A DNA stretch of 64,000 bases from an uncultured delta proteobacterium (GTDB lineage: Bacteria > Desulfobacterota > Binatia > UBA9968). The position numbers were made by a program, and so were the translations under genes. Of this stretch, positions 8,367 through 63,625 are shown piece by piece; the first letter of the stretch is position 1, and every line of letters begins with the position of its first letter. The notes beneath the pieces were generated by a model, which was not told where the DNA came from, searched no databases, and saw only the letters and a list, made by a program, of their open reading frames with translations. Where the stretch lies: contig CAWFJP010000027.1 in NCBI GenBank assembly GCA_963816145.1, positions 1 to 64,000 on the forward strand, written 5' to 3'.

Positions 8367-8432
8367 CTTCCAGCCGGTCGCCCGCCGTTCCCACTCCTCC
8401 GTTACATTCATCTCCCTTCAGAGGATTTCTCT

Positions 8433-21041: not shown

Positions 21042-21045
21042 GGGT

Positions 21046-21138
21046 TAGGCAATAGGCACTAGGCAACAGGCAATAGTAGGAAAAGGACAACGCATAGATC
21101 GGATCTTTCTGTTGCCTATTGCCTATTGCCTAGTGCCT
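21046..21138. repeat. Inverted heptamer (AGGCAAT)n repeat
   Basis: TAGGCAATAGGCACTAGGCAACAGGCAATAG ... TGTTGCCTATTGCCTATTGCCTAGTGCCT. Confidence 0.85.
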
Positions 21139-22864: not shown

Positions 22865-22871
22865 GAATTTT

Positions 22872-22946
22872 TAGGCAACAGGCAATAGGCAACAGGCAAT
22901 AGTAAGAAATCCGGATGTTCTACTATTGCCTATTGCCTGTTGCCTC
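22872..22946. repeat. Inverted heptamer (AGGCAAT)n repeat
   Basis: TAGGCAACAGGCAATAGGCAACAGGCAATAG ... CTATTGCCTATTGCCTGTTGCCT. Confidence 0.85.
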
Positions 22947-25015: not shown

Positions 25016-25267
25016 AGTCCGTTCCGTCTACCATGTAATTTTCGCGCCTTCAATCGACGCTGTAATGTCGCAATTGCCGCCGCTTGAAACGTCGATGCCA
25101 ACGGTGCGATGCAGGGCATTGGGAACTGATTGACAGGTCGAACGAACTGGCATTACAAGCGGTATGAGAAATCGATGCATCATAAATAGCTGGCGATGAT
25201 GCCCCCACCTGTGTCCTCCGCCGACCCGGGGGAGGATGAAAGAGGGGGACACGCAGAGGAGAATTGA

Positions 25268-26350: not shown

Positions 26351-26399
26351 ATTGTTTGCGTTTTCAACGCGTCGTTGAGGATCTTTTTCCACCACGAAG

Positions 26400-26589
26400 T
26401 GATTCATGAGCTTACGCTCGTCCACAGAGTATGAAATTGCAGCCTCCCTGCACGCCGCCCGATTCGTCATGCCGGCGAAGGCCGGCATCCAGGGGCGGGA
26501 GGGGATGGATACCGGCTTTCGCCGGTATGACGGAACCTTCGTGCCAAGTCGTCGCCCGGATCATACCTGCACATGTATTTTCGATGGAG
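26400..26589. mobile_element. 190-bp IS110-like non-autonomous element (copy 2) inserted in a CACGAAG repeat
   Basis: Splits CACCACGAAG|GACACGAAAATCACGAAG; homologous to copies 1 and 3. Confidence 0.7.
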
Positions 26590-26734
26590 GACACGAAAAT
26601 CACGAAGGTCGGAGAGTTCTTCGTCCGCGCCCTCCGACATCCTCTCCCTTGACGGGAGAGCATTGAGGTGAGGGTGCTGATAAAAATCGATAGCGCGCGA
26701 AGCACAACCAATCTCTGAGTGGAGCAAAATTACG

Positions 26735-30481: not shown

Positions 30482-30679
30482 GGTTCTATCCTCCTGCTTG
30501 CTTCTCATCCGGGTAAGATGGCTTACCTTTCCACTTCGCTATTTTGCTGTCAAGTTCGATGAGTGGACGCGGTCCTGTCGATCAAGACGTTCGAATTATT
30601 CAAATCGCCGGAAACCGCCGCCGAAGTTTGACAGGGGCGATGGTTTAGGGGAATCTTCTTGCCAGAAGAGGTAAATGCC

Positions 30680-35752: not shown

Positions 35753-35830
35753 CACCACGAAGGCACGAAGGACACGAAGATTTCGGATATATAATTTCTT
35801 CCCTTCGTGCTCTTCGTGTCCTTCGTGGTG
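35753..35830. repeat. Uninterrupted CACGAAG inverted repeat (further copies 37155-37234, 41224-41303)
   Basis: CACCACGAAGGCACGAAGGACACGAAG ... CTTCGTGCTCTTCGTGTCCTTCGTGGTG. Confidence 0.85.
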
Positions 35831-35851
35831 ATATCGATTTGGAGTAACCGC

Positions 35852-37075
35852 ATGTATAAAACCAGCAAAGAGGAAAACGAAATTCTCACGCGCACCGGCA
35901 AGGGGACGCCGATGGGGGAGTTTTTGCGGCGCTATTGGTGGCCCGTCGGGATTTCCGCGCATTTAAAAATCAAGCCGACGTTTATTCGCGTATTCGGCGA
36001 AGATTTAGTTCTGTTTCGCGACGGCAATGGCAAAGCCGGCGTCATCGGCGCTTACTGCGCGCACCGCCGGGCGAATTTATGCCTCGGCGATGTCGAGAAG
36101 GACGGCGTGCGCTGCCGCTATCATGGCTGGTTGTACGATCGCGATGGCCAGTGCCGGCAGATTCCCGGCGAGCCGCCCAACAGTGAATTGAAAAAGGAGT
36201 CGATCCGCTTGCCGGCTTATCCGGTGCAGGAGTTGGGCGGTTTGATCTTTGCCTATTTCGGACCGCAGCCTGTGCCTCTGGTGCCGCGCTATAATTTTCT
36301 GGTCGGCGAAGGCGAGGTTTACATCACGGTCCAAGGCATTCAGAACTGCAACTGGCTGCAATGCGTCGAGAACGGCATGGACCCGGTGCACCCGAGCTTC
36401 ACCCATGGCGGCGCCTGGCCGGATATCATGAGTACGGAGCCGGAATTGGGCTTCCATGAAACCGAGTGGGGCATGGTTTACAAGGCGTATCGCAACACCA
36501 AAGAGCCGGGCCTGCTCAACTACCGCGAGCATCACTTACTCATGCCCGGGGTCAGTTGCGGCGGCAGCGGCGGACGTTATCTTTCCGGCGAGAAGGCCGG
36601 GACGCCGGTGTCGGCGGCGCGCTGGAGCGTGCCCATCGACGACACCCACACGTTGCTCATGCGCGTGCGCTTCAAGCCGTCGGACAATCCCGGCAAATAT
36701 GAAGGCGATCCGTTCAGCCGCCGTTGGAAGCCGCCGCAGCAATTCATCGTGCCTTACAAAGAGTATCTGGACTCCGACAACCCCGAGTTGGGCTATCCGA
36801 TCCCGCCGCTCCATTTCATCGAGGACGGCATGGTGGTCGACAGCATGCCGCCGATCGCCGACCGCGAGAACGAAAACCTCGGCCCGGCGATCGATGACGG
36901 CATTATCAAACTGCGCCAGATGTATTTGCGCGAGATCGACAAAGTGAAGCGCGGCGAAGATCCAAGATGCATTGTGCGCGATCCGGCGAAGAATCAGGTG
37001 ATCGTCATTCCGGCTTATGAAAAATGGGTGCCGGAGAGCGAGCGTAATTTGGGAAAAAGCGCGGCGGTGGGATAA
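35852..37075 (+). CDS. Rieske non-heme iron oxygenase alpha subunit
   Basis: GTPMGEFLRRYWWP, CAH...CRYHGW, ENGMDPVHPSFTH, DRENENLG. Confidence 0.92.
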   Translation: MYKTSKEENEILTRTGKGTPMGEFLRRYWWPVGISAHLKIKPTFIRVFGEDLVLFRDGNGKAGVIGAYCAHRRANLCLGDVEKDGVRCRYHGWLYDRDGQCRQIPGEPPNSELKKESIRLPAYPVQELGGLIFAYFGPQPVPLVPRYNFLVGEGEVYITVQGIQNCNWLQCVENGMDPVHPSFTHGGAWPDIMSTEPELGFHETEWGMVYKAYRNTKEPGLLNYREHHLLMPGVSCGGSGGRYLSGEKAGTPVSAARWSVPIDDTHTLLMRVRFKPSDNPGKYEGDPFSRRWKPPQQFIVPYKEYLDSDNPELGYPIPPLHFIEDGMVVDSMPPIADRENENLGPAIDDGIIKLRQMYLREIDKVKRGEDPRCIVRDPAKNQVIVIPAYEKWVPESERNLGKSAAVG

Positions 37076-46293: not shown

Positions 46294-48009
46294 ATGGCTT
46301 ACGATATTTTGATCAAAGGTGGACGGATTTACGACGGCAGCGGTCTGCCGTCTTATTTAGGCGACGTGGCGGTGCAGGATGGCAAGATCGTCGAGACCGG
46401 GCGGATCAACGGCCGCGCCAAGCGCGTGGTGAACGCCGACGGTTTGGCGGTGTCGCCGGGCTTCATCGATTTCCACACCCATCTCGATGCGCAACTTTTG
46501 TGGGACCCGCTGGCGACCTCGTCCTGTTATCACGGTGTGACCACGGTCATTCCCGGTAACTGCGGCTTGTCGTTGGCGCCGTGCAAAGAGCCGGACCGCG
46601 ACACGATCTTGCGTAGCTTCGAGCGCGTCGAGGCGATCACTTTTCCGGCGTTGAAGGCCGGCGTGCCTTGGGGCTTTACCACCTTCGGCCAATATCTCGA
46701 CACGATGCGCGGCAACCTCGGCGTCAATGTTGCTTCGCTGGTCGGCCACTGCGCGCTGCGCCAGTATGTCATGGGCGCAGCTTCCCTCGAACGCGCCGCG
46801 ACGCCGGCGGAAATCCATCAGATGAAAGAAGTGTTGAAGGCCAGCATCCGCGCCGGCGCGGCCGGCTTCTCGACCAATCAGAACCCGGTGCATATGTATG
46901 CCGACGGCACGCCGATCCAGAGCCGCTTCTCCACCGACGAAGAGATCATCGAGATGGCCTGCGCGCTCGGCGAGATCAATCAAGGCGCGGTGCAGATTTC
47001 CCGCGGTTCGCTAGGCGTATCGGTGTCCATGCCCGATAGCGTGAAACTGTTCGAGGAAATATCCAGCCGCTCCGGCCGGCCGGTGATTTGGCAGAGCATC
47101 ACGCACCGTTGGGACAAACCCAACGAATGGCGCGAGCTATTGGACCTGGCCGGCGCGACCATTGCCCGCGGCGTGCAGTCCTATCCGCTATGCAACGCGC
47201 GCTTGTTCAATAACCGGTTGACGATGAAGACTGCGCAAGTCTTCGACGATCTGCCGACCTGGAAGGCGATTCTGTTCCTGCCGCTGGCAGCGCGCATTGA
47301 GGCGATCAAAGATCCCGAGACGCGCAAGAAGATGCGCTACGAAGCGGTGGAAGAAAAGAAATCGTCGCGTTTCTCGCGCCGCTGGGACCTGGTTTATTTA
47401 ATCAACGCGGTCAAGCCCGAGAACAAGTGGCTCGAAAAGAAGAGCGTCGCCGAGATCGCCAAGATTCGCAATCAAGACGTCATCGACGCCTTCCTCGATC
47501 TGTCGTTGGAAGAAGGGTTGGACACCGAGTTCCAAACCTCGAGCACCAACGGCGACGAGAAGGCGGTGGCGGAGATCATCAAGAGCCCCTATGTGCTGGT
47601 CGGCCAGTCCGACGCCGGCGCGCATCTGATCTACGACGCTGGCTTCGGCTATGCGACGCGCTTGTTGGGCTACTGGGTGCGCGAGAAGCAGATCATGACG
47701 GTGGAAGAAGCCGTGCGCAAACTGACCTTCATGGTGGCGTCGATCTTCGGCCTGCCGGATCGCGGCCTGTTGCGCCGCGGCATGGCGGCGGATGTCTGTA
47801 TCTTCGACCCGGCGACGGTGCGCGAGTGCGATGCCGAGATGGTGCAGGATCTGCCGGGCAACGAGAAGCGCTACATTCAGAAAGCCGTCGGCATCGAGAT
47901 GACCATCGTCAATGGCCAGGTGCTGGTGGAAAAGGAAAATCACACCGGCGCGTTGCCCGGCACGGTGCTCGGCGGCGGCAACAACGCAGCGCTGCAGGCT
48001 GCCGCGTAA
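46294..48009 (+). CDS. N-acyl-D-amino-acid deacylase family amidohydrolase
   Basis: PGFIDFHTHLD, HGVTTVIPGNCG, SDAGAH, DRGLL..G.AAD. Confidence 0.92.
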   Translation: MAYDILIKGGRIYDGSGLPSYLGDVAVQDGKIVETGRINGRAKRVVNADGLAVSPGFIDFHTHLDAQLLWDPLATSSCYHGVTTVIPGNCGLSLAPCKEPDRDTILRSFERVEAITFPALKAGVPWGFTTFGQYLDTMRGNLGVNVASLVGHCALRQYVMGAASLERAATPAEIHQMKEVLKASIRAGAAGFSTNQNPVHMYADGTPIQSRFSTDEEIIEMACALGEINQGAVQISRGSLGVSVSMPDSVKLFEEISSRSGRPVIWQSITHRWDKPNEWRELLDLAGATIARGVQSYPLCNARLFNNRLTMKTAQVFDDLPTWKAILFLPLAARIEAIKDPETRKKMRYEAVEEKKSSRFSRRWDLVYLINAVKPENKWLEKKSVAEIAKIRNQDVIDAFLDLSLEEGLDTEFQTSSTNGDEKAVAEIIKSPYVLVGQSDAGAHLIYDAGFGYATRLLGYWVREKQIMTVEEAVRKLTFMVASIFGLPDRGLLRRGMAADVCIFDPATVRECDAEMVQDLPGNEKRYIQKAVGIEMTIVNGQVLVEKENHTGALPGTVLGGGNNAALQAAA

Positions 48010-48166
48010 GAATTTCGGATTGTCTCCCGCAAAGGCGCCAAGGCGCAAAGTTCGGACCTACCATTCCTTCCTCCCCCGCGACGCGGGGGAGGACCGAGGA
48101 GGGGGCTTGAACGGAGCGTCAGCGGTTGAACGGCTGGAACGATTGGAACGGAAGTTAGGGGAGATC

Positions 48167-49562
48167 ATGGGCGCTACTGAGAAAATTGCCAGGTTCATAG
48201 TCGATACTGACTACAAGAGTTTGCCGCGCGAGGTCGTGGCTAAGGCCAAGCGCTCGGCGCTGGATTGCGTGGGCGCGGCGCTTGCCGGCATTTCAGAGCC
48301 GGTCAGCCAGACCGTTACGGGTTACGTCACCAAACTCGGCGGGGCGCCCCAGGCGTCGGTGTTCGGCGCCGGCGTCAAACTTGCGGTTGCCGACGCGGCT
48401 CTCGCGAATGGCTCCATCGCCCATGCGTTGGACTACGACGATTGCGGTGTCAAGATCGGCCACCCCAGCGTCTTGGTTTTGCCCGCCGTGTTGAGCCTCG
48501 GCGAGCATCTCGGCGCCTCGGGCCAGGATCTCCTCGCTGCTTACGTCGTGGGACTTGGAAGTCGAGGGCAAGCTGGCATTGCATGCGGACTTCAAGCTCA
48601 TGCAAGCTCGGTTGAACCATCAAACCTGGTACGGTTCCATCGGCGCGGCGGCGGCTTGCGCGAAGCTGCTCAAGTTAGATGTTGCGAAAACACGGATTGC
48701 TTTGGGCATCGCGGGAAACTCTGCCTGCGGTTTGTCGGCGAACCACGGCAGCATGGCCGGCGCGATGGCGGCGGGCAACGCCTGCCGCAACGGCGTGATC
48801 GCCGCGCTGATGGCGCAAGCGGGGATTACGGCCAACTCTAATATCATCGAAGGAAAGAACGGTTTCTACGACACACTGGTGGGCCCGGGCCACTACGACG
48901 CCGAGCGCATGGCGGACGGTTTGGGCAAGCCGTTTTACATCGAGTCGCCAGGCATCAGTCTAAAAATGTATCCGAGCTGCTACCACACGCACCGGGCGCT
49001 CGATGGTATGTTCCAATTACTCAATGAGCACCATCTCGACGACAAAGACATCGCCGCCGTTGATGTCGGCACCTCGGAGCGCGCCTTGCGCGTGCTCGCT
49101 TTCTCCGAGCCAGCAACGCCGTACCAAGCCAAGTTCAGCATGCCGCACTGCATCGCCGCCGCCGTGGTGGACCATGCGGTAACGCTCGAGACTTTCACCG
49201 ATCACAAGCTAAACGATCGCAACATCGTCGAAGCCCGCAAGAAGGTTCGGCTTTCCTTCCCCAACGTGCCGATCTGGCCGGGCCTGGCGGACGTCGGCCC
49301 GGACACCGAGTTCGTCGGCAATCCGGTGACGATCCAGACGACCGATGGACGGAGCCTGAGTGCGAGAGTGGATATCCCGCGGGGCGACGCCTCGCTGCCG
49401 CTCACTGACGACGAACTGTTAGGGAAATACCGTGACTGTGCGCGCGCTCAGTTAAGCCAGGACAACATCGAGCGCAGTGCCGGCTTGGTTCGCGGGTTAG
49501 AGAAGGTGGGGGATGTCGGGACGCTGATGGCTATTCTCAGATCGCCGTTGCATAGGGCTTAA
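48167..49562 (+). CDS. MmgE/PrpD family protein with a +1 frameshift at ~48554-48556
   Basis: ANGSIAHALDYDD, HPS, KMYPSCYHTH, AKFSMPH. Removing one base restores YVVGLEVEGKL (464 aa). Confidence 0.88.
49433..49562 (+). repeat. 130-bp direct repeat, copy 1 (3' end of MmgE/PrpD gene)
   Basis: Ungapped match to 59081-59210, 115/130 identical by manual count. Confidence 0.92.
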
Positions 49563-50238: not shown

Positions 50239-52209
50239 ATGCGCGAGCAATTTTACCAGAGCCACGGCCTGCCTCCAGAACAGGCGGCAATTCGAGACAA
50301 GTGCTTTCATCCGTCGGGCACCTTCGTCGAGTTTCCGATGGAGGACATCGAGACTTCGATTCCGGAGCGCTTTGACAAGATGGTGCGGTTCTACCCGAAA
50401 CAGATCGCTGTCGCCACGCGGTCAGAATCGCTCACGTATGAAGCGTTGAATCACGCCGCGAACCGCGTCGCTAATGCACTCTTGGCGTTGAGCGACGCAC
50501 AACTGGAGCCGGTGGGACTCCTCTTGCCTAAGAGCGTTGCGTTGGTCATCGCGATGCTCGGGACCTTGAAGGCCGGGAAGACCTGCGTACCGATGGACCC
50601 GACGTTTCCGGCGACCCGGCTTTCGCGAATGTGCGAAGACCTACAAGCCCGTTTACTCGTCGTTGATCAAAGCACCGTTGAAGTGGCGAAGGGGTGCGCC
50701 AATAAAGAACGGTTCTTGAATGTCGATGACCTGGACAACCGAGCTGACGCGAGTCCGAACGTCGCGTTTCGACCGGACGATTCAGCCTGCATATTTTACA
50801 CTTCGGGGTCTACCGGTTTGCCCAAGGGTGTCATTGAGAACCATCGCAACCTGCTGTACCACACGATGCGAGATACCAACGACTACCATATCTGCGCCGA
50901 GGACAGATTGACGTTTGTTGCTTCGTCAGGGAGGGATATCTTCCGCGCCCTACTTAACGGCGCCGCGGTCTACCCCCTGGACATTCGTCAGGAAGAATTT
51001 ACCGGATTGGCTCACTGGATGATGAAAGAAGAGATCACAGTTCTGAATTGCGTGACTTCGGTCTTCCGGAACTTCGCGAGCGCGGTGAACACCAGCGAAC
51101 AATTCCCCCACCTGCGCCTGATCGGGTTGACTGGCGAGACTATCTACAAAAGCGATTTTGAGCTCTTTCGAAATCGGTTTTCCGACAAATGTGTTCTGGT
51201 TAATCGTTATGGCCCCAATGAAGCGGGCCGGATTGCCCAGTATCTGATGGACAAGAGTACCGTTTTCACGAGTAACGTTGTACCGGTTGGCTACCTGGCT
51301 TCAGGAAAAGAGATCCAGCTTGTCGATAACGACGGCAACCCGGTCGCGGTTGGGGCGATCGGCGAGATCGTGGTCAGAAGCCGTTATCTGTCCCCTGGGT
51401 ATTGGCGGCAACCTGAGCTGACCCACGATACATTTCAGGCTGATCCTTTGAACCCGCAGAACCGGGTTTATCACACCGGAGACCTTGGCTTGATGGAGCC
51501 GGATGGCCGTCTCCTGCATCTCGGACGAAAAGACTTTCAAGTCAAGATCAGAGGAAATCGCGTCGACACAATGGCTGTAGAAACCGCGATCCTCGGTCTC
51601 GAATCAGTGCGCGAGGCCGCTGTGGTTGCGGTGGAAAGTGGTGCCGGCGATCCGCATCTCGTGGCCTATGTCGTCGTGAACGGGACGCCCGTGCCGACGT
51701 CGAGCTCTGTACGAGACGCGCTCAAGGACCAGTTCCCAGCGTTCATGATTCCGTCAACGTTCGTTTTTATGGACAAGCTGCCCGTTACCGGCATCGGTAA
51801 GGTTGACCGCAGAGCGCTCCCCGCGCCTGATTGGGGCCGGCCGGGCCTTGACGTGCCCTATGTTGCTCCGCGAAACGAAATTGAAGAAAAGCTGGCGGAC
51901 ATTTGGGCCGAAGTTTTGCATCTGGAAAGGGTCGGAGTTCTGGATAACTTTTTGCATCTGGGCGGTCATTCAATCACGGCGGTGCGCGTCGTCACTAAAA
52001 TAATTCAATCCATGCAGATCGAACTGCCGATCAAAGCTCTGTTTGATTCACCCACGATCGCCGACATGGCCGCACTAATTGCTCGGAACGAGTTGAGCGT
52101 GGCCGACGCCCAAGCGCTGGAACACATGCTCAATGAAGTGGAAGCGATCACGGAGGGGGAAGCGAGTAAATCGCTTGCGCGAGGACAAAAGGGCGAGCGC
52201 CCGCGCTGA
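50239..52209 (+). CDS. Stand-alone NRPS-like adenylation-thiolation (A-PCP) protein
   Basis: YTSGSTGLPKG, NRYGPNE, YHTGDLG, GRKDFQVKIRG, GKVDRRAL, PCP DNFLHLGGHS. Confidence 0.93.
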   Translation: MREQFYQSHGLPPEQAAIRDKCFHPSGTFVEFPMEDIETSIPERFDKMVRFYPKQIAVATRSESLTYEALNHAANRVANALLALSDAQLEPVGLLLPKSVALVIAMLGTLKAGKTCVPMDPTFPATRLSRMCEDLQARLLVVDQSTVEVAKGCANKERFLNVDDLDNRADASPNVAFRPDDSACIFYTSGSTGLPKGVIENHRNLLYHTMRDTNDYHICAEDRLTFVASSGRDIFRALLNGAAVYPLDIRQEEFTGLAHWMMKEEITVLNCVTSVFRNFASAVNTSEQFPHLRLIGLTGETIYKSDFELFRNRFSDKCVLVNRYGPNEAGRIAQYLMDKSTVFTSNVVPVGYLASGKEIQLVDNDGNPVAVGAIGEIVVRSRYLSPGYWRQPELTHDTFQADPLNPQNRVYHTGDLGLMEPDGRLLHLGRKDFQVKIRGNRVDTMAVETAILGLESVREAAVVAVESGAGDPHLVAYVVVNGTPVPTSSSVRDALKDQFPAFMIPSTFVFMDKLPVTGIGKVDRRALPAPDWGRPGLDVPYVAPRNEIEEKLADIWAEVLHLERVGVLDNFLHLGGHSITAVRVVTKIIQSMQIELPIKALFDSPTIADMAALIARNELSVADAQALEHMLNEVEAITEGEASKSLARGQKGERPR

Positions 52210-52849: not shown

Positions 52850-53782
52850 GTGGGCGTGGCGAGTATCGTGCTTTCTAGGCTGATGCAGGCGGTGCCCTCG
52901 TTACTGGGAGTGACGATCATCGCGTTCGTGCTGCTCCAGTTAAGCGGCGATCTCACTCAACTGCTGCTGCCAATGGAGGCTTCCGAGGAAGTGCGCGCGG
53001 ATTTTCGCCGCGCGTATGGCCTCGATCAGTCGATCCCAGTCCAGTATGGCCACTACCTAACGCGCTTGCTGCATGGCGACTTCGGCCAATCCTTTGCCTA
53101 TCGTCGGCCGGCGCTGGAGGTGGTGTTGGAGCGGCTGCCGGCGACGCTGGAGCTGTCGGCGGCGGCGTTGCTGATCGCCTTGACCGTCGCTATTCCCGCC
53201 GGCATTATTTCCGCGGTCAAGCGCAATTCAATCTTCGATCATATCTCCATGGGCCTGGTGTTGCTGGGGCAGTCGGTGCCGACGTTTTGGCTGGGCATGC
53301 TGATGATCCTGATATTCGCGGTGGGGTTGCACGCGCTGCCGGTCTCCGGCCGGGGCAGCTTTGCGCAACTAGTATTGCCGAGCGTGACGCTGGCGATGTG
53401 GCTGCTGGCGCTGGTTGCAAGGCTGACGCGCTCGGGGATGTTGGAGGTGCTGTCCCAGGACTACATCCGCACCGCGCGGGCCAAGGGTCTGGCCGAGATC
53501 GTGGTGACCACGCGGCACGCGGTGCGCAACGCGCTGGTGCCGATCGTCACGGTGGTGGGTTTGCAGGCTGGCGGATTGCTCGGCGGCGCGGTCATGACCG
53601 AAGCGGTGTTTGCATGGCCGGGCGTGGGCACACTGGTGCTGGAGTCGATCTTGAAGCGCGACTACCCGGTGGTGTTGGCGGCGTTAATCATAGTAGCCAT
53701 GGCCTTCGTGCTGATCAATCTGCTGGTAGATTTACTCTATGGCTACCTGGACCCGCGGGTGAGGACGGCGCGTCGTGGCTAG
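52850..53782 (+). CDS. Peptide/nickel ABC transporter permease (DppB-like)
   Basis: GLDQS...QY, GDFGQS, RLPATLELS, DYIRTARAKGL, TEAVFAWPG. Confidence 0.95.
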   Translation: MGVASIVLSRLMQAVPSLLGVTIIAFVLLQLSGDLTQLLLPMEASEEVRADFRRAYGLDQSIPVQYGHYLTRLLHGDFGQSFAYRRPALEVVLERLPATLELSAAALLIALTVAIPAGIISAVKRNSIFDHISMGLVLLGQSVPTFWLGMLMILIFAVGLHALPVSGRGSFAQLVLPSVTLAMWLLALVARLTRSGMLEVLSQDYIRTARAKGLAEIVVTTRHAVRNALVPIVTVVGLQAGGLLGGAVMTEAVFAWPGVGTLVLESILKRDYPVVLAALIIVAMAFVLINLLVDLLYGYLDPRVRTARRG

Positions 53783-54677
53783 TGAGATTGCATTGGCTGT
53801 GGCCGAGCCGGAACCGACGGTGCGCGACGGTTACCGTACGTTACGGCGACTCGCGCGGGGGCGCACCGGCTGGGTTGGAGCCGTCTTGCTAGTTCTGATC
53901 ATGGGGGTCGCGCTAGCAGCGCCGCTGGTGGCGCCATACGGTTTCAACGAGATGTCGTTAGCAAATCGGCTGCAGCCACCGGTGTGGCTGGCTGGCGGAA
54001 CTTCCGCGAACCTGCTGGGGACCGATCCGCTGGGGCGGGATATGCTGAGCCGGGTGATCTGGGCCGCGCGCACGTCGCTCAGCGTCGCCGGCATCAGTGT
54101 GCTGGTGGCGCTCTTTTTCGGCGTGACGATCGGACTCTTGTCCGGCTATTATGGCGGCTGGCTCGACATGTTGATCATGCGGCTAGCGGATATGCAGTTG
54201 TCGTTTCCGTACTTGTTACTGGCCATTGCCGTGATGGCGCTGCTCAAACCTACGCTGGCTAATCTGATCATTGTCCTGGCGCTGCGCAGCTGGGTGGTGT
54301 ACGCGCGCACGGTGCGCAGCTCGGTGCTGGTGGTCAAGCGGAGCGAGTTCGTCGAGGCGACCGTCGCGCTCGGTGCATCGGACCGGCGAATCATCACGCG
54401 TCATCTCACCCCCAACGTGATCGCGCCGGTCATCGTGATCAGTAGTTTTCAACTGGCGGAGTTGATCATCGCCGAATCGTCGCTGAGCTTTTTAGGATTA
54501 GGTGTACAGCCGCCGACGCCAAGTTGGGGCGGCATGCTCAGTCAGGGTAGGGAGTACCTGACCAGCGCGTGGTGGCTGGGCTTGTTCCCGGGGCTGGCGA
54601 TCATTCTGACCGTGCTGGGTATAAATTTGTTCGGCGATGCGCTACGGGACGCAATGGACCCGAGGCTGAGAATGTAA
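53775..54677 (+). CDS. Peptide/nickel ABC transporter permease (DppC-like)
   Basis: LLGTDPLGRD, ESSLSFLGLG, PSWG, GDALRDAMDP. Confidence 0.95.
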   Translation: MASEIALAVAEPEPTVRDGYRTLRRLARGRTGWVGAVLLVLIMGVALAAPLVAPYGFNEMSLANRLQPPVWLAGGTSANLLGTDPLGRDMLSRVIWAARTSLSVAGISVLVALFFGVTIGLLSGYYGGWLDMLIMRLADMQLSFPYLLLAIAVMALLKPTLANLIIVLALRSWVVYARTVRSSVLVVKRSEFVEATVALGASDRRIITRHLTPNVIAPVIVISSFQLAELIIAESSLSFLGLGVQPPTPSWGGMLSQGREYLTSAWWLGLFPGLAIILTVLGINLFGDALRDAMDPRLRM

Positions 54678-54708
54678 ATTTTGGATTTTCGATTTTGGAT
54701 TTTGGATT
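54678..54708. repeat. (TTTTGGA)n heptamer tandem repeat
   Basis: ATTTTGGATTTTCGATTTTGGATTTTGGATT. Confidence 0.7.
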
Positions 54709-54750
54709 AAAAAGGCAGAATTGGCCGGAGTCAAATTGGGATGCGTAACT

Positions 54751-56029
54751 ATGCGGCTTGAGCTTGGGTCGTTTAATATTGATTGCATTGAGTTCGGGGT
54801 GCGGACCGCGGTGGAGAACCGGACGCTGGTCGTCAATCGTGAAGAGGTGCGACGGCTGGTGCTTGTTGATTCGCACTTCGCGGACGTGCGGGTACATCTG
54901 GCTCGGCCAGGCGAGATGGTCAGAATCATCAACGCCAAAGACGCGGTGGAGCCGCGCTGGAAAGTGAAAGGGCCGGGCGGGGTATTCCCCGGATTTGTCT
55001 CTGCGCCGACCACGGTGGGCGAGGGGCGGACGCATCGGCTTGGCGGGGTGGCGGTGTTGGAAGTGGCGGAGCCTGTGCCGGGCGAGCAGACTCATTTCCG
55101 CGAACAGATCCTCGACATGTCCGGGCCGGGCGCGGAGTTCAGCCCGTTTGCCCAAACGCTCAACGTAGCGCTCGAGTTCACGCCGCACCCGAGCCTGTTT
55201 TCGTCGTCGGTGGACGCTAAGGACGTGCTGGGCGGGACCAGTGCAGCCGAGGACTACGGACGCGCGACCACATTGGCGTGTCTAAAGGTCGCCGCTTATC
55301 TGGCTAGGACCACGGCGGAGCAGCTGCCCGGACGAGTTGGAGACGTTTGAGCTGACGCCCTGCGCGCCGGAGTTGCCCCGTGTGGCCTGCCTGTACCATA
55401 CCCAAGCGAACTACGTGTACGGCGCGAAAATCCCTCTGCCGCTGGGAACGCTTGTTCATCCGAATGAGTTGTTCGACGGTGCTCTTGTCGGCTGGCGTCA
55501 GGCCTATCGCTCGACCTACTGGGACCAGAACAACCAGGCCATGCGCGAGCTTTATCTGGCCCATGGCAACAGCGTAAATTTCGTCGGCTGTGTGCTGTTC
55601 TACGACCTCACGCCGGAACGGGAGCAGAAGGAGCGTGTGAGCAGCGCCGCGGCGAAGTTGGTGCGGCTGCTTGGCGCCCAGGGCGCGCTCGTGCTTGGCA
55701 TCAACGGCAGCAACTACGCCATCGATACCATGCTCGCGATTCAAGAATGCGAGAAGCTGGGCATCAAAACCACTTTGATCTATCTTGACGTCGGCTACGG
55801 GCCGGACGATCCGGGCTTCGTGCACGCCGCGCCGGAGGCGGACGCGATTGTCTGTATCGGCAGCCGCGACCGAAAAATAACTCTGCCGCCGACAGCGAAA
55901 GTGATCGGCGGGCAACGGCTGGCGAGCAGCGATGCCGACCCGCGCGGCGAGGTGACCGTCAACCAGCGCGACATCCACACCGCGTGCAGCGCGCAGGGAT
56001 TTACTCGGCAGACGACGAGGTTTTATTGA
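54751..56029 (+). CDS. Glycine/sarcosine/betaine reductase component B alpha/beta-type subunit (GrdE/GrdG/GrdI-like), +1 frameshift at ~55327-55329
   Basis: MRLELG, ARPGE.VRI...KD.VEPR.K, GEGRTH.L.G.AV, DMSGPGA.FSPF, HPNE..DGA.V, ADAIV..G. Removing one C of CCC restores LPDELETFE (425 aa). Confidence 0.88.
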
Positions 56030-56073
56030 GATGTTAGAGTCTCGATTTTGACACGTAACCAGGGGAGGGACAC

Positions 56074-57387
56074 ATGAATACCATTCGCGTCGTACTTTAC
56101 CTGAATCAGTTCTTCGCTGGGCTTGGGGCGGAGGAATACGCGGGAACCGGGCCCGGGAAGAAGTCAGGGGCGGTGGGGCCAGGTATCGCGCTGCAGCAAG
56201 CGCTGGGCGAGGGGGCGCAGATCGTCGCGACGGTGTACTGCGGCGACAATTACGCCAACGAGCATGCCAACGCCATCGATGCGATCTTGGCGCTAGTGTC
56301 CGAAGAGCGGCCGGATATTTTGATCGCAGGTCCGGCCTTCGCCTCTGGGCGGTACGGGCTGGCGTGCGGCGAGCTGTGCGTGCGGGCGCAAGATGAGCTG
56401 GGAGCGTTGGGCATCGTGGCGGTGACCGGCATGCACCCGGACAATCCGGGCGTTGACCTGTACCGAACCAAGGTCCACATCGCGCGCACGCGTGAGAGTG
56501 CCGCTGGCATGAGCGACGCGATGAAAGTCATGGCGCGGCTGGCGCTGAAACTTTACGCTCGCGTGCCGCTCGGGACGCCGCAAGAAGAAGGGTATATTTC
56601 CACTGGGCGGAGAGTCCATTTTGTCGCCGAGCAGACGGCGGCGCAGCGTGCCATCGAAATGCTGGTCAAGAAGATGAGCGGCCAGCCGTTCGCCACCGAG
56701 TGGCCCACGCCGAGCTACAGCCAGGTGGAGCCGGCGCCGCCGGTGCGGGATATCGCCCATGCCAAGATTGCATTGGTCACCACGGGAGGTGTGGTGCCGC
56801 GCGGCAACCCGGACCGGCTCGAGTCGGCCTACGCGAGCAAGTGGCTGAGGTATCCGATTGGCGAGCTGAACGATCTCAAGCCCAGCGATTGGCAGTCGAT
56901 TCACGGCGGCTTCGACACGACCAACGTAAACGAAGACCCGAACCGGATGGCGCCGCTCGACGCGCTGCGTGAGTTAGAACGAGAAGGAGCGTTCCAGGAT
57001 CTGGACGACGAGCTTTACACGACCACTGGCAACACCGCGGCCATCCCGACGGCGCGCCGCTTCGCGCAGGAAATGCTCAAGGTGTTACGCGCCAACGACG
57101 TGCAGGGGGTGATCCTCACTTCCGCCTGAGGGTCATGCTCTCGCGGCGGCGCCGTGATGGCTAAGGAATTCGAGTCGGCAGGCATGCCGGTGGCGTACGT
57201 AACCACGCTGGACGGGCTGGCCCGCTCAGTGGGCGCGCCGCGCATCGTGCGCGGCAAGGCGATTACCAACGTCGCGGGCGACCCCAACCTGCGGCCAAGC
57301 GACGAGAAGGCGTTGCGCAAGGAGATAGTTGCCAAGGCGCTAAAGGCGCTCACGACGCCAGTAAACGAACCGACGTCATTTGATTGA
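56074..57387 (+). CDS. Glycine/sarcosine/betaine reductase selenoprotein B (GrdB-like), 437 aa with Sec352
   Basis: YLNQFFAG, CGDNY, AGPAF.SGRYGLACG, IALVTTGGVVP.GNPD, HGGFD. The two track ORFs 56074-57129 and 57154-57387 are in one frame, joined by TCC GCC TGA GGG TCA TGC = S-A-U-G-S-C. Confidence 0.92.
57131..57162 (+). promoter_or_regulatory. Putative bacterial SECIS hairpin
   Basis: Upper stem TCGCGGC/GCCGTGA with G-first loop GGC starting 18 nt after the UGA; lower stem GGTCA/TGGCT. Confidence 0.65.
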
Positions 57388-57485
57388 GATTAATTCCGGT
57401 ACACGCTGCCTAGCGAGCGATCGCGGGTGTTCTCATGAGGCGGCCTAATAATGATGCGGGGATGTCGAGAAGCTAAGAAGGAGCG

Positions 57486-59015
57486 ATGATGAAGGCTGAT
57501 TTCCGAGTACGATCAAGTATGCTCGTTTGGGGAGCGTTGCTGGCGCTGCTCACCTCGTCGTCGGCGGCCCATGCGGCGCAATCGGCCGGACCAGCGCAGT
57601 GGACCTTGGCCGTGATCGAAGAGACCACCTCGGTGGATCCGGGCGCAGCCGCGGCAGCCAACGCCACGGTGCTGGTGCTGCGCCACCTGTTCGAGCCGCT
57701 GGTCGCGTACGAGGGCGCGCCGTTCAAGCTGACGCCGAGATTGGCCAGCTCGTGGACGGTGAAGGACAACCGCTGGGAGTTCAAGCTGCGTCAGGGTGTG
57801 AAGCACCATGACGGCACGCCGGTCACCGCCGAGGACGTGAAATATTCGCTCGACATCTACCGCCAGGACGGTTCGCCGCGCAAAGCCAACACCGCGGGCA
57901 TCACCAACGTCGAGGCGGTGGACCCACAGACGGTGCGGATCACCACCGACGGCCCGCGCCCCGGCTTGATGGCCAACCTGAGTCTGCTGCTGATCCTCTC
58001 CAAGAAGGCCAGAGAGAAGATGGGCGTTGACGAGTTCGGCAAAAAGCCGGTGGGCAACGGCGCCTATAAGTTCGTCGAGTTCGTGCGCGGCCAGCGCTTG
58101 GTGCTGGAAGCCAATCCCGATTACTACCGCGGCCGCGTGCAGCCGAGCCGGCTGGTGCTGCGACCCATCAGCGACCCAGCCACACGCGTGGCGGAGCTCA
58201 AAACCGGCGGCGTGCAGATCATCCAAGATCCATCGCTGGCGCAGCTGCAAGAATTACAGACCGATCCGAACACGGAGCTGAAGCTGCTCAAGGGCGGACG
58301 GTTGATCATCCATCCGTTCAACACCACCGAGCCGCCGTTCGACGACGTGCGCGTGCGCCGCGCGGCGAACTACGCGGTGGATCGCGCATCAATTCTAAAG
58401 CGGGTGTTGGAGAACTATGGCGAGCTGTTGCGCGGCCCGTACTCATCGGCGTGGCCGGGCTACGATCCCAAACTCAATCCTTATCCGTACGATCCGTCCA
58501 GGGCCAAGAAACTGCTGGCTGAGGCGGGCTACGCGAACGGGATCGAGGCGAACTTCAGCATCACCAGCGGCGCTTTCCTAAAGGATCGCGACATCGCTGA
58601 GGTGATCGCCAGCCAACTGGCCGAGGTGGGTATCAAGGTGCGGCTAGTGCCGACCGAGCGCGCCACGCTCCAGACCACCTGGCTGGCCGGCGATTTCAAA
58701 GGCATCACCTCGGTGGCCTGGGGGACCGCCGCCGATCCCGACGCGATGCTCGGCTGGGCGCTATACCAGCGCAAGGGTCACAAGCCCGATGACAAGCTGA
58801 ACGGGCTCATCGACAAGAGCCGCAAAACGGTCGACCCCGAGCAGCGCACCAAGGTGCTAATGGAGCTTGGCCACTACGTGCACGACCAGGCTTACTGGCT
58901 GTTCATGCACGCCCAGGACGAAATATACGCCAAGCGTAAGGAGGTGCGCTGGGAGCCTGTGCCTGAAGGCCAGAGCTTCGCGAACGTGAGGTACTACACC
59001 GTGACGCCGCGGTAA
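57486..59015 (+). CDS. Family 5 (DppA/OppA-like) ABC substrate-binding protein
   Basis: Signal peptide; LASSW...WEFKLRQGVK.HDG.P.TAEDVKYS, PVGNGAYKF, PFDDVRVRRA.NYAVD. Confidence 0.95.
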   Translation: MMKADFRVRSSMLVWGALLALLTSSSAAHAAQSAGPAQWTLAVIEETTSVDPGAAAAANATVLVLRHLFEPLVAYEGAPFKLTPRLASSWTVKDNRWEFKLRQGVKHHDGTPVTAEDVKYSLDIYRQDGSPRKANTAGITNVEAVDPQTVRITTDGPRPGLMANLSLLLILSKKAREKMGVDEFGKKPVGNGAYKFVEFVRGQRLVLEANPDYYRGRVQPSRLVLRPISDPATRVAELKTGGVQIIQDPSLAQLQELQTDPNTELKLLKGGRLIIHPFNTTEPPFDDVRVRRAANYAVDRASILKRVLENYGELLRGPYSSAWPGYDPKLNPYPYDPSRAKKLLAEAGYANGIEANFSITSGAFLKDRDIAEVIASQLAEVGIKVRLVPTERATLQTTWLAGDFKGITSVAWGTAADPDAMLGWALYQRKGHKPDDKLNGLIDKSRKTVDPEQRTKVLMELGHYVHDQAYWLFMHAQDEIYAKRKEVRWEPVPEGQSFANVRYYTVTPR

Positions 59016-60257: not shown

Positions 60258-62174
60258 TCAGGTCGAACTCCTTGCCGTAACGGTAGGATAGCCCAGCGCG
60301 GACAAACCGGCGGTAATTTCATCGAGGATCAGCGGATCGTCGATGGTGGGCGGAACTTGATAATCGATCCCGTCGGCAATTTTTTTGATGGTGCCGCGGA
60401 GAATCTTGCCCGAGCGCGTCTTGGGGAGCCGCTTGACCACCGTCGCGACTCTGAAAGAAGCCACGGCGCCGATCCTTTCGCGCACCATCTGGACCACCTC
60501 GCTGACGATCTCGCCGTCTGAGCGTCGCACGCCTGCCTTGAGCACGACCAGGCCCAGCGGAATTTCCCCTTTGATCTCGTCGGCGACTCCCAGGACAGCG
60601 CACTCGGCGATGTCGGGATGAGACGCCAGCACCTCTTCCAGCGCGCCGGTGGAGAGCCGATGACCGGCGACGTTGATGATGTCGTCGGTGCGGGTCATCA
60701 CCCAAAGATAGCCGTCCTCGTCTTTGTACCCCGCATCGGCGGTGAGGTAGTAGTTGGGAAACCTGGCGAGGTAAGCCTTGCGGTAGCCTTCATCGTTGTT
60801 CCAGAGTGTCGGTAAACAACCGGGCGGCAACGGCAGCTTGACGACAATACTGCCGATCTGAGCCGCTGGCATTTCCCTGCCGTCATCGTTCAACACCCGG
60901 ACATCGTAACCGGGCACCGGTTTGGTGCACGATCCCGGTTTTACCGGAAGCATTCCCAATCCGATACAATTGGCGCCGATGGGCCAGCCCGTTTCGGTCT
61001 GCCACCAGTGATCGATCACCGGCACGCCAAGCTGCTTTTCCGCCCACAGGAGCGTGTCCGGATCGCAGCGCTCGCCGGCGAGAAAGAGTGTGCGCAAGCC
61101 GCTCAAGTCGTACTTGCGGATCAATTCGCCGTTGGGGTCTTCGCGTTTGATCGCGCGAAATGCCGTTGGCGCCGTGAACAAGACCTTCACGCCGTGCTGT
61201 GAAACGACCCGCCAGAACGCGCCAGCATCGGGAGTGCCGACCGGTTTGCCCTCGTAGAGCACCGTGGTGTTGCCGTTGAACAGCGGCGCGTAGACGATGT
61301 ACGAGTGGCCGACGACCCAGCCCACGTCGGATGCCGCCCAATACACTTCACCCGGCTCCACGCCGTAGACGTGCTGCATGCTCCATTGGAGCGCGACCAG
61401 ATGCCCGCCATTGTCGCGCACGATTCCTTTGGGCATGCCGGTAGTGCCCGAGGTGTAAAGGATGTAAAGCGGATCGGTGGCCTCGACGGGAACGCAGTCC
61501 GCCGGTTTTGCCCCCGCCATCTCTTCTGACCAGTCGAGGTCGCGCCCGCCGATCATCGACGCCGTTTCCTGCGGCCGTTGGACGATAATGCAGCGCTCCG
61601 GCTTGACCGCCGCAAGTTCGATCGCCTTGTCGAGCAGAGGTTTGTAAGGAATGATACGGCCGGTTTCGATGCCGCAGGTCGCCGAGATAATTACCTTCGG
61701 CCGCGCATCGGTGATGCGATTGGCGAGCTCATGGGCGGCGAAACCGCCGAAGACCACCGAATGAATCGCGCCGATGCGCGCGCATGCCAGCATCGCGACG
61801 ATCGCCTCCGGCACCATGGGCATGTAAATGATGACCCGGTCGCCTTTCCGAACTCCTTGCCCGGCAAGCACGCCGGCAAAGCGCGCCACTTGATCGAGCA
61901 ATTCTCTATAGGTGAACGTCCGGACGATTCCGGTCACCGGGCTATCGTAAATGAGCGCCGGCTGATTCGCCCGCCCACTTTCGACATGACGATCGAGCGC
62001 ATTGTAGCAAGTGTTGAGCAATCCGCCGGCGAACCATCGATAGAACGGCGGCCGCGAGTCATCGAGCACCCTGTCCCACTTTTTATCCCAGTGAACCGCT
62101 TCGGCCGCCTCGGCCCAGAAATTCTCGGGATCGTTCAGCCAGCGGGTATAGACGGCGTCATAGGTATCTCTCAT
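60258..62174 (-). CDS. prpE: Propionyl-CoA synthetase
   Basis: NTCYNALDRHV, YTSGTTG.PKG.VRDNGG, DHWWQTETG, INVAGHRLSTG, PKTRSGKILR. Confidence 0.88.
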   Translation of the reverse strand: MRDTYDAVYTRWLNDPENFWAEAAEAVHWDKKWDRVLDDSRPPFYRWFAGGLLNTCYNALDRHVESGRANQPALIYDSPVTGIVRTFTYRELLDQVARFAGVLAGQGVRKGDRVIIYMPMVPEAIVAMLACARIGAIHSVVFGGFAAHELANRITDARPKVIISATCGIETGRIIPYKPLLDKAIELAAVKPERCIIVQRPQETASMIGGRDLDWSEEMAGAKPADCVPVEATDPLYILYTSGTTGMPKGIVRDNGGHLVALQWSMQHVYGVEPGEVYWAASDVGWVVGHSYIVYAPLFNGNTTVLYEGKPVGTPDAGAFWRVVSQHGVKVLFTAPTAFRAIKREDPNGELIRKYDLSGLRTLFLAGERCDPDTLLWAEKQLGVPVIDHWWQTETGWPIGANCIGLGMLPVKPGSCTKPVPGYDVRVLNDDGREMPAAQIGSIVVKLPLPPGCLPTLWNNDEGYRKAYLARFPNYYLTADAGYKDEDGYLWVMTRTDDIINVAGHRLSTGALEEVLASHPDIAECAVLGVADEIKGEIPLGLVVLKAGVRRSDGEIVSEVVQMVRERIGAVASFRVATVVKRLPKTRSGKILRGTIKKIADGIDYQVPPTIDDPLILDEITAGLSALGYPTVTARSST

Positions 62175-62521
62175 GGCGTTCCCTCCGACGTTACCGGATG
62201 CCGTTCCTTTCACTCAAAGATCGTGCTGTGATCGAGCCTATTCCGACGGCTAGGTCCGGCGCAAGCGCACACGAGGGAGGCAAATCGGAGGCAAATCTTC
62301 GTCAACAGCGTTACTCCCTTCACTCCCCTGCGCTCCGTTCAAGCTCTTCGGAATCAGACCTCTTGCGCCCGGCGGAAGCTCTGTGTTCGACGTGATGGAT
62401 CAGAGGTCCGAGTGCCTTAATTTAGACGCGCATTGTCTCGACTCGCTGGTTAAAGCCTGCGCGGATTGACAGCTCCAGGATCGATCCACTAATGTCGGAA
62501 TTATCGACGAAGGGGGGTACC

Positions 62522-63625
62522 ATGAACAGTCAAAATAGGAATCCCGTCATCGACGCCGACGCTCATGTCGTGGAGTGCGCGCATACCTGGGACTTTATGG
62601 ACAAGTCCGAAGAGAAGTATCGTCCGATACCCTTGGAAGCGCGCGAAGAAGCCGGTGTGCGCCAACAGTTTTGGCTGGTCGATGGTAAAGTCCGCGGTTT
62701 TCGCTTTGCGGTTCTCTCAGACGAGCTCATGGCCAAGCGCCAACAACAGGTCGGTAGGAAGTTCGCCGAGCAGGCGGAGTCTCGCGAGCTGGCCAATGTC
62801 GATCTGCGTCTCGAGCACATGGATCAAACGCAGGTCGATATTCAGGTGTTGCACAACACCATGTTCATCGAGTCGTGCACCGACCGTCCAGCGGTCGACG
62901 TGGCGCTCTGCAAGAGTTGGAATCGCTGGCTGGCCGACATCTGGAAGCAGAGCGAAGGGCGCCTGCGTTGGTCGTGCATGCCGCCGCTGCTCAGCATGCC
63001 GGACGCCCTCGATCAGATTCGCTGGTCGAAGGAAAACGGCGCCTGCGCTGTCTGCCTGCGCCCCGTCGAGGGCAATCGTCTGCTCGCCGACTCCTACTTT
63101 TACCCCATCTACGAAGAGGCCCAGAAGCTCGACATGGCGATCGCCATCCACATCGCCAACGGCAACGCCTGGCTCAACGATCTCTACGGCAACCATCCGG
63201 TGCGCATCGCCACGACCTTTCACCGCTTTAGAATACCGACGGTGGGGGCGTTTAACGACATCGTTATGAGCGAGATCCACGACGTCTTCCCCAAGCTCCG
63301 CTTCGGCTTTATCGAAGCGAGCGCCCAGTGGGTGCCCTGGATCATGCATGAAGCGAAGATCCGCTTTCGAACGCTCGGCCGGCCGTGGCCGGAGAATCTG
63401 CTCAAGGAGTTCGGCTTATTCGTCAGCTGTGAAAATTGTGATGATATCGCGTACATCGTGCGCGAGGCCGGTGAGGACAATCTGGTCATCGGCACCGATT
63501 ACGGTCACACCGATTCTTCGAGCGACCTCGATGCCATCAACATTTTTCGCGGACGCGACGATCTATCGCCCGCCGTCAAAGAGAAAATTTTGAGCGATAA
63601 TGCGCGCTCTCTCTACGCTTTGTAA
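62522..63625 (+). CDS. Amidohydrolase_2 family protein
   Basis: VIDADAHV, CKSWNRWL, FIEASAQW, IGTDYGH. Confidence 0.92.
   Translation: MNSQNRNPVIDADAHVVECAHTWDFMDKSEEKYRPIPLEAREEAGVRQQFWLVDGKVRGFRFAVLSDELMAKRQQQVGRKFAEQAESRELANVDLRLEHMDQTQVDIQVLHNTMFIESCTDRPAVDVALCKSWNRWLADIWKQSEGRLRWSCMPPLLSMPDALDQIRWSKENGACAVCLRPVEGNRLLADSYFYPIYEEAQKLDMAIAIHIANGNAWLNDLYGNHPVRIATTFHRFRIPTVGAFNDIVMSEIHDVFPKLRFGFIEASAQWVPWIMHEAKIRFRTLGRPWPENLLKEFGLFVSCENCDDIAYIVREAGEDNLVIGTDYGHTDSSSDLDAINIFRGRDDLSPAVKEKILSDNARSLYAL

Follow-up and report, generated by a model that had tools for sequence, protein, structure and literature searches.

The stretch of DNA considered here, the window, comprises the first 64,000 nucleotides of a contig (CAWFJP010000027.1, here C27) from an uncultured delta proteobacterium of the class Binatia (assembly GCA_963816145.1, here G000). 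Toward its end lie five closely spaced genes, all on the + strand (positions 52850-59015; Table 1). They encode two ATP-binding cassette (ABC) transporter permeases of the DppB and DppC type; a GrdE-family protein, in two frames; a GrdB-family selenoprotein; and a solute-binding protein (SBP) of the SBP_bac_5 family. Coordinates and Pfam matches confirm this co-oriented dppB-dppC-grdE-grdB-SBP order, which the original prediction had read as component B of a selenoprotein reductase embedded in a peptide transporter operon. Two further parts of that prediction also stand: none of the 54 window open reading frames (ORFs) of at least 90 amino acids that were scanned matches an ABC ATPase, GRDA (selenoprotein A), GrdC, GrdD, thioredoxin or sel family; and two Rieske-domain proteins are encoded in the window (30659-32026 and 35807-37072). 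The module is real, conserved and coupled to an importer, and its enzyme is predicted to depend on selenocysteine (Sec).

Table 1. Features of the dppB-dppC-grdE-grdB-SBP module, by position in the window.
Feature	Position	Strand	Evidence
DppB/OppB-type ABC permease	52850..53782	+	Pfam BPD_transp_1, 154 bits, plus BPD_transp_1_N
DppC/OppC-type ABC permease	53775..54677	+	Pfam BPD_transp_1, 106 bits, plus OppC_N
GrdE family, N-terminal part, first frame	54721..55350	+	Pfam Gly_reductase positions 1-172, 158 bits
+1 frame break in grdE, one extra C in a C run	55326..55329	+	DNA alignment with four orthologues
GrdE family, C-terminal part, second frame (open from 55319)	55337..56029	+	Gly_reductase positions 190-425, 118 bits
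GrdB-family selenoprotein, 437 amino acids, motif TSA-U-GSC-SRGG	56074..57387	+	Pfam GRDB (PF07355), 442 bits (cut-off 22)
UGA read as selenocysteine, codon 352	57127..57129	+	Frame continuation and alignment to homologues
SECIS-like hairpin, CGCGGC-GGC-GCCGUG	57142..57156	+	Alignment of clade members
Family-5 (cluster C) periplasmic solute-binding protein	57486..59015	+	Pfam SBP_bac_5, 306 bits

The GrdB-family gene is the core of the module. With its in-frame TGA read as Sec, the frame stays open for 85 codons past the UGA, and the read-through product aligns through residues 5-436 with positions 1-430 of the 431 in the broad subfamily model TIGR01918 (469 bits; cut-off 65.45). The same aligned position is TGA in all six GrdB paralogues of the genome and in 77 of 78 homologues from related loci. 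The window protein is a member of the GRDB/TIGR01918 family and a predicted selenoprotein. Public gene callers end its close homologues at the UGA, at 348-352 amino acids, and name them glycine or betaine reductase. Around the Sec residue the window clade reads U-G-S-C-(S/N)-R-G-G-A, compared with U-G-T-C-T-R-C-G-A in Firmicutes. Other paralogues in the genome read UGTSTRSG, UGSSTRCG, UGTGTRSG or UGTCSRSG; U-x-x-C is kept in only two of the six. A homologue with 44% identity to the window protein, in a metagenome-assembled genome (MAG) labelled Bathyarchaeota (L113, 242-1570), has no in-frame TGA and may be a natural Cys form.

A hairpin resembling a selenocysteine insertion sequence (SECIS) starts 15 nucleotides after the first base of the UGA and overlaps the conserved RGGA codons. 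All eight clade members have it, and their alignment shows one compensatory pair and three G-U changes. The hairpin is compatible with a bacterial SECIS element and lends the predicted read-through weak support, not a demonstration.

Within the family, the window protein is not a glycine, sarcosine, betaine or proline enzyme as the NCBIfam equivalog models currently define them. It scores below the cut-off of each: 488.7 of 800 for GrdF (sarcosine; NF040794); 443.7 of 602.2 for GrdB (glycine; TIGR01917); 410 of 775 for GrdH (betaine; NF040795); and 87.7 of 300 for PrdB (D-proline; TIGR04483), the last through residues 224-426 only. Among 34 further family members scanned, out of 82 prepared references, eight exceed an equivalog cut-off (four GrdB and four GrdF; seven Firmicute-type rows and one Spirochaete row), and one betaine-type row reaches 774 against the cut-off of 775. 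The other 25, all from outside the Firmicutes and Spirochaetes and four of them paralogues from this genome, pass the broad subfamily model only.

The family tree gives the same picture. It was built with IQ-TREE from 83 rows (77 from loci and the six sequences of this genome), with SH-aLRT support only and midpoint rooting; L113, which lacks the TGA, and loci with truncated or frame-broken grdB were left out. So rooted, the window GrdB falls in an eight-row clade (SH-aLRT 99) with L039, L040, L041, L045, L047, L048 and L049, inside a 31-row set of environmental sequences. Rows labelled GrdB, GrdF or GrdH lie in a separate 30-row clade (SH-aLRT 95), together with three other paralogues of this genome. 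Thus the enzyme does not nest within the characterised GrdB, GrdF and GrdH groups, a placement that would have told against the original prediction.

The whole module, and not only its selenoprotein, recurs. Its closest public loci come from MAGs labelled Candidatus Binatia or "uncultured delta proteobacterium", with one labelled Lacipirellulaceae (GrdB identity 84-92%). By tblastn, the window order dppB-dppC-grdE-grdB-SBP is found in L039, L040, L042 and L043 (GrdB identity 84-92%) and also in the Chloroflexota MAG L041 (68%). In three Rokubacteria/Methylomirabilia loci (L046-L048; 59-62%) the order is SBP-dppB-dppC-grdE-grdB, and a short contig, L044, holds grdB-SBP only. The proposed tie between enzyme pair and transporter is borne out by this recurrence in MAGs labelled Binatia, Chloroflexota and Rokubacteria, and the eight-row GrdB clade is drawn from exactly the lineages that carry the module. 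Pfam scans of the orthologous flanks revealed no common enzyme and no ABC ATPase. Within the order to which G000 belongs, an SBP orthologue (E <= 1e-150) is present in only two of 40 relatives, G004 and G008; in both, a GRDB gene lies just upstream of it, and both hold GrdA and GrdC. Patchiness within the order, together with 60-68% identity across phyla, suggests that the cassette has moved laterally.

The GrdE-family gene is disrupted in the window. Its family match begins at ORF residue 11, and the true start is likely the ATG at 54751. At the break the window reads CTGCCCGGAC, where L039, L040, L041 and L042 read xxG-CCGGAC: one extra C at about 55326-55329. Both halves lie in one frame in every orthologue that holds both, and the window halves are otherwise open and 84-93% identical to the intact orthologue L039. 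Of four public runs compared, X3 and X4 do not reach the site; the two contigs that span it (from X1 and X2, of two studies) both lack one base at 55326. These contigs are about 93-95% alike to the window and so represent relatives rather than the source strain; no public run contains that exact strain, the best sharing 0.67 of the sampled words. Because the orthologues are intact and the difference is a single base in a homopolymer, we regard the break, with good confidence, as an assembly indel. A real frameshift, which the original prediction had named as a threat to its proposal, is correspondingly unlikely.

Similar breaks occur elsewhere in this assembly. In the window, an MmgE/PrdD-family gene (47912-49559) is split: one ORF covers MmgE_PrpD_N positions 1-143, and the overlapping ORF that follows covers positions 127-240 and the C-terminal domain. 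This second break in the window fits an origin in assembly indels. Other split genes include a xanthine-dehydrogenase-type (molybdopterin dehydrogenase) subunit in L009, the tail of the C8 GrdB gene after a run of Lys codons, and grdC. Relatives assembled in 10-50 contigs (G003, G004, G017, G018 and G019) and the "MFD" MAGs L042 and L043 likewise have GRDB or GrdC matches that are split at places other than contig ends; some many-contig MAGs show partial matches, mostly at contig ends.

The GrdE-like protein differs from its clostridial counterparts at a residue central to their chemistry. The pyruvoyl group of Clostridium difficile GrdE derives from a Cys, and the labelled peptide spans amino acids 242-266 (PMC9908766). 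In Acetoanaerobium GrdE, residue 242 is the Cys that follows DGAILSGN; the window has DGALVGWR followed by Gln, with no gap between DGA and the site. Gln occupies this position in the window, L039, L040, L041 and L042, and Arg does so in four Rokubacteria/Methylomirabilia rows. A survey covered 72 GrdE-family ORFs of at least 380 amino acids from the loci, with the two window pieces aligned separately. Cys is present at the SGN-Cys site in 21 of them: 17 from Bacillota, two from Spirochaetota, and two unlabelled rows that sit with GrdF. The remaining 51 lack it. Two of these, the partners of a GrdH-type protein (L105 and L106), have Phe; the 49 others include seven of the genome's eight GrdE paralogues, two of which have Thr. 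By analogy, the window subunit is expected to be of the uncleaved, pyruvoyl-free kind.

The flanking transporter genes encode an importer of peptide or opine type. The two permease genes overlap by 8 nucleotides. The DppB-like permease falls below every NCBIfam equivalog cut-off (the top row, Opp2B, gives 334.5 against 350), as does the binding protein, whose sequence begins with a signal-like segment. Nearest solved relatives of the latter are 8upi, 6tfq, AgaA, HbpA, AccA and YliB: binders of peptides, opines, glutathione and haem. A ligand assignment from these structures was dropped, their ligands being mixed. The same kind of search, by sequence against solved structures, found no relative of either the GrdB-like or the GrdE-like subunit.

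The missing ATPases have a plausible source. The genome holds ten dppB/dppC pairs and, in the search for importer ATPases that the original prediction proposed, one adjacent pair of oligo_HPY (Opp-type) ATPase genes (C11:46079-47386). With ten permease pairs and a single ATPase pair, the ATPase-less operon is not special to this locus, and the gene counts suggest that ATPases are shared among importers.

Much of what the window lacks is encoded elsewhere in the genome (7.82 Mb in 31 contigs, rated 99.5% complete). The genes selA, selB and selD lie side by side (C30:562492-566803), selD itself carrying an in-frame TGA, and a tRNA-Sec gene (C30:576761-576855) lies about 10 kb downstream. There is one selenoprotein A gene, on contig C2, with the motif CFVUTAAGAM and one TGA (184 bits; cut-off 130). 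Directly upstream of this intact Sec-grdA lies grdC (C2:210846-212232; about 8314-9800 in locus L013). The GrdC piece with the motif FCAG is matched by the ACP_syn_III and FabH profiles and represents the FabH-like region of GrdC, in which the FCAG motif may have a role. For GrdD, a profile search of the genome gave a best match of 20 bits, to a 378-amino-acid open frame on C14. Thus the statement that the system works without GrdA, GrdC and GrdD holds for the window; for the genome it holds for GrdD only, and a full grdA-grdC-grdD set was not found.

The window locus is one of several of its kind in this genome, which contains six GRDB genes and eight Gly_reductase genes (other loci L008-L012 and L032, on contigs C5, C31, C8, C29, C4 and C1). 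At four of the five other GRDB loci (C5, C31, C8 and C29), NMT1/THI5, SBP_bac_5 or ABC_sub_bind genes lie within a few kb of the enzyme pair; no binding-protein gene was seen near the locus on C4. At the C29 locus a single GrdB gene is accompanied by two GrdE genes, and the GrdE gene on C1 has no GRDB match nearby.

Candidates for re-reduction of the selenoenzymes may also be named from gene neighbourhoods: a DUF255 thioredoxin-like gene and a pyridine-nucleotide-disulfide oxidoreductase. The DUF255 gene adjoins the genome's C31 pair (L009:11908-13503) and the grdC-grdA-grdE-grdB clusters of L122 and L123 (genomes G029 and G025). The oxidoreductase recurs near grdC-grdA, and in L123 both it and a radical SAM/DUF3641 gene lie near the cluster. 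No PlsX-like or Pta-like replacement for GrdD was present among the grdC-grdA neighbours surveyed, a survey in which ORF calls were unusable at the loci of highest GC content, L125 and L127.

The combination of GrdA and GrdC without GrdD is the rule among relatives. The order was sampled with 41 genomes, one of them G000. Of these, 37 contain GRDB (up to ten matches each); 34 contain a single full-length GrdA copy with one TGA; the same 34 contain GrdC, likewise single-copy (over the cut-off in 30); and none contains GrdD by profile search. (If the unpublished G005 is omitted, the tallies are GRDB 36, GrdA 33, GrdC 33 and GrdD 0 of 40.) GRDB and GrdA occur together in 32 genomes, GRDB alone in five, GrdA alone in two and neither in two. 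As positive controls, the GrdD profile gave 602 and 577 bits in Soehngenia and Acetoanaerobium genomes. All five genomes reached through the loci hold GrdA and GrdC; one Rokubacteria, one Chloroflexota and one complete Dehalococcoidia genome hold these two without GrdD.

Wider draws agree. In the phylum of G000, GrdA was found in six and GrdD in one of 121 genomes, the sole GrdD (in G090) adjoining GrdA; in the class of G045, GrdA in 12 and GrdD in none of 101; and in the phylum of G043, GrdA in 16 and GrdD in none of 81. As far as profiles tell, the organism is one that lacks a single Grd subunit, GrdD, not one that lacks the Grd complex, and this lack is common to several phyla. The suggestion that the module works outside the classical glycine reductase complex is therefore only partly right, with respect to GrdD.

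Other family members place these genes together. In L122, L123 and L050, grdC-grdA lies directly beside grdE-grdB or grdB. The Dehalococcoidia chromosome carries an uninterrupted grdB-grdC-grdA run. The domain at the C-terminus of GrdC proteins is the one that Pfam lists as DUF5940 (L049:4268-5725, L050:9262-10806 and L123:8772-10220).

Several known systems invite comparison. Closest in design is the protein B of betaine reductase (GrdH/GrdI) from Eubacterium acidaminophilum and relatives. It too pairs a Sec-containing GRDB-family subunit with a Gly_reductase-family partner that lacks the cleavage Cys; it is one of several protein B sets served by a single GrdA; and it is encoded beside an uptake system. 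GrdI is reportedly uncleaved, and the betaine reductase protein B is said to be carbonyl-free. Nevertheless, the window GrdB misses the GrdH cut-off and lies off the GrdH branch; the window importer is an ABC system of peptide/opine type rather than a betaine carrier; and the host, from a large-genome soil MAG with Rieske oxygenases, has no detected GrdD.

The clostridial pairs GrdB/GrdE and GrdF/GrdG share with the window the two protein families, the position of Sec and the U-G-x-C motif. They differ in their scores, where the window reaches 444 of 602 and 489 of 800, respectively, and in the Cys at the pyruvoyl site. Moreover, the window operon lacks the grdA, grdC and trx genes of clostridial glycine and sarcosine reductases, and no GrdD was found in the genome searched. 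D-proline reductase (PrdA/PrdB) likewise combines a Sec subunit with a Gly_reductase-related subunit, and works without GrdA and GrdC. PrdA is pyruvoyl-dependent (PMC9908766), whereas the window partner lacks the Cys.

Importers of the Dpp, Opp, Gsi and opine type resemble that of the window in having two BPD_transp_1 permeases (OppC_N) and an SBP_bac_5 binding protein. In the window operon, however, ATPase genes are absent, the enzyme pair separates the permease genes from the binding-protein gene, and all NCBIfam equivalog cut-offs are missed.

The arrangement of enzyme plus transporter has a precedent. Cloacibacillus has a number of protein B sets, each specific to its substrate and located near a gene for a transporter, that feed one common reductase system (PMC10838667). 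One of these, the fluoroacetate reductase FarB/FarE of Cloacibacillus porcorum MFA1, consists of two protein B homologues whose genes accompany that of a dedicated transporter, FarA; its proposed mechanism is a Sec attack that displaces a good leaving group, with the common Grd system taking over from there (PMC10838667). The Far transporter is a major facilitator superfamily antiporter whereas the window has an ABC importer; the Far host is an anaerobic member of the Synergistota with grdC and grdD, according to the gene-map legend of PMC10838667; and the FarE profile gives only 64 and 48 bits here, far below its cut-off of 675. That grdH has homologues outside anaerobes was noted earlier (PMC9321204, citing Jameson et al. 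2016). Multiple protein B sets that lie near transporters and feed a common system are thus already in print. In the literature searched, which left most subscription journals outside, we did not find a description of a module embedded in an ABC importer, of a general loss of the cleavage Cys in environmental clades, or of GrdA and GrdC without GrdD.

These results suggest a model in which the enzyme pair is a protein B dedicated to a particular imported substrate and hands its product to a common GrdA/GrdC system without GrdD. We regard this model as a whole with moderate confidence; its central step, that the module feeds the shared GrdA and GrdC, is probable. The binding protein would capture a small carboxylate in the periplasm, and the two permeases would import it, probably with ATPases borrowed from the genome's single Opp-type pair. 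Selenocysteine 352 of the GrdB-like subunit would then attack the carbon next to the carboxylate, expelling an amine, or else a different group that is of onium type or leaves readily. Since the GrdE-like subunit appears to be pyruvoyl-free, as is the partner in betaine reductase, no Schiff base with the substrate is expected. The selenium-bound acyl (carboxymethyl) group would pass to the single selenoprotein A, and GrdC, encoded next to grdA, would then act on it. The last step would have to differ from the clostridial one, because no GrdD, the subunit that forms acetyl phosphate, was found in the lineage; given the FabH-like region of GrdC, release from a GrdC thioester as acetyl-CoA or acetate may take its place.

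A number of observations weigh against this model. Only the type of transporter hints at the substrate and, to our knowledge, family-5 binding proteins are not the usual binders of betaine. An alternative processing site in the GrdE-like protein is possible. The folding energy of the 64 nucleotides after the UGA, taken as a single sequence, is no better than that of shuffled sequences (z = -0.57). The binding-protein orthologue is patchy within the order. Five relatives contain GRDB without GrdA or GrdC (G001, G009, G020, G021 and G032, of 65, 93, 67, 95 and 95% completeness, respectively), and protein B may not always depend on proteins A and C. The profile search would miss a protein that does the work of GrdD but has diverged very far from it or is unrelated to it. 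Finally, grdC, intact in relatives, is in four frame pieces in this genome; three of these were scanned and together reach 466 bits (cut-off 450). Its DNA is 73% identical to that of a same-genus orthologue, L121, with noisy gaps among which single-base errors are not distinguishable. Taken with the split grdE, the broken grdC could mean that the pathway is decaying in this strain.

Among alternatives, the one that survives best is a stand-alone reductase, which was the reading of the original prediction: like PrdA/PrdB, the GrdE-like/GrdB-like pair would split the imported compound by reduction and release its product directly, and its Sec-x-x-Cys would be re-reduced by a thiol system independently of GrdA and GrdC. 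The module is self-contained, patchy among relatives and common to several phyla; it keeps the U-x-x-C motif; five of the 37 GRDB-bearing relatives show no GrdA or GrdC; and no GrdD was found in these lineages. Yet each of the checked genomes with the module or a clade member (G000, G004, G008, G043 and G044) also has GrdA and GrdC, grdC-grdA is the direct neighbour of grdE-grdB or grdB in three loci, the PrdB score is 88 of 300 bits, and of the five relatives without GrdA, two have a completeness of just 65-67%. We judge a stand-alone enzyme unlikely.

A second alternative is that an ordinary glycine, sarcosine or glycine-betaine protein B merely lies beside a peptide transporter, using, for example, glycine from imported peptides. 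The names given by public callers favor such an enzyme, as do the top NCBIfam rows (GrdF, GrdB and GrdH), and the missing cleavage Cys fits the betaine type. Nonetheless, the window protein falls 158 to 365 bits short of the three equivalog cut-offs; it lies outside the well-supported clade of the labelled enzymes; Gln at the position of Cys242 argues against Schiff-base chemistry of the glycine or sarcosine type; and linkage to the importer, kept across three phyla, points to a dedicated substrate. An ordinary protein B is therefore improbable. That the locus is a decaying, non-functional copy, its grdE break and broken grdC being real mutations, is very improbable: the two-frame grdE and four-piece grdC fit decay, as does a base not checkable in the strain's own reads, but grdE is broken by just one additional C within a run of C, its halves are otherwise open and 84-93% identical to an intact orthologue, and split genes recur elsewhere in this assembly and in those of relatives.

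The model of an importer-linked protein B that feeds GrdA and GrdC may extend beyond this locus. In a broader form, which is possible but which we doubt in its entirety, the module would represent an undescribed and widespread branch of Stickland-type selenium reductases in soil, groundwater and marine Binatia, Rokubacteria and Chloroflexota. Pyruvoyl-free protein B sets, each with its own importer, would reductively split imported onium-type or opine-like carboxylates and release amines such as trimethylamine, while the acyl group would pass through one GrdA to GrdC alone, yielding acetyl-CoA rather than acetyl phosphate.

In textbooks, the reductases of glycine, sarcosine and betaine belong to strict anaerobes that ferment amino acids. 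Here the selenium machinery is found in large soil genomes with oxygenase genes, and in an altered form: many modules (two to ten GRDB matches per related genome), most of them near binding-protein genes, with no residue that could form the pyruvoyl group and no subunit for making acetyl phosphate. If active, such modules could be an overlooked sink in soils for small nitrogenous or similar carboxylates, and possibly a source of volatile amines; they would also imply a selenium requirement in abundant uncultured phyla. If the broader form of the model is correct, the pathway would serve carbon and nitrogen supply rather than fermentative ATP gain. The binding protein offers a direct experimental handle on the substrate.

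Regulatory signals in the window offer few leads. At gathering scores, Rfam gave no matches anywhere in the window and so no hint of a riboswitch. The numbers of promoter-like sites (3, with 2.2 expected) and of terminator-like sites (10, with 6.2 expected) are uninformative. The spacer between dppC and grdE (54680-54712) contains a short AT-rich tandem motif, TTTGGATTTT, present twice. A 10-mer of this motif occurs 92 times in the genome, compared with about 15 expected from length alone, and strings resembling its translation appear also in the spacers around grdC and grdA in L013.

Other genes lie around the module and across the window. On the same strand, about 640 nucleotides upstream of dppB, a gene resembling those of non-ribosomal peptide synthetases encodes an adenylation and carrier-protein didomain (AMP-binding, AMP-binding_C and PP-binding; 50239-52206). 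Neither this gene nor the downstream flank (an acetyl-CoA-synthetase-like gene, 60258-62210, and an amidohydrolase gene, 62492-63622) has a match of at least 40% identity in the first 20 related loci. Farther upstream (19308-28189), a gene for a UbiD-family decarboxylase is clustered with three hydantoinase genes, two of type B and one of type A, and several NMT1/THI5-type binding-protein genes and amidohydrolases are dispersed across the window.

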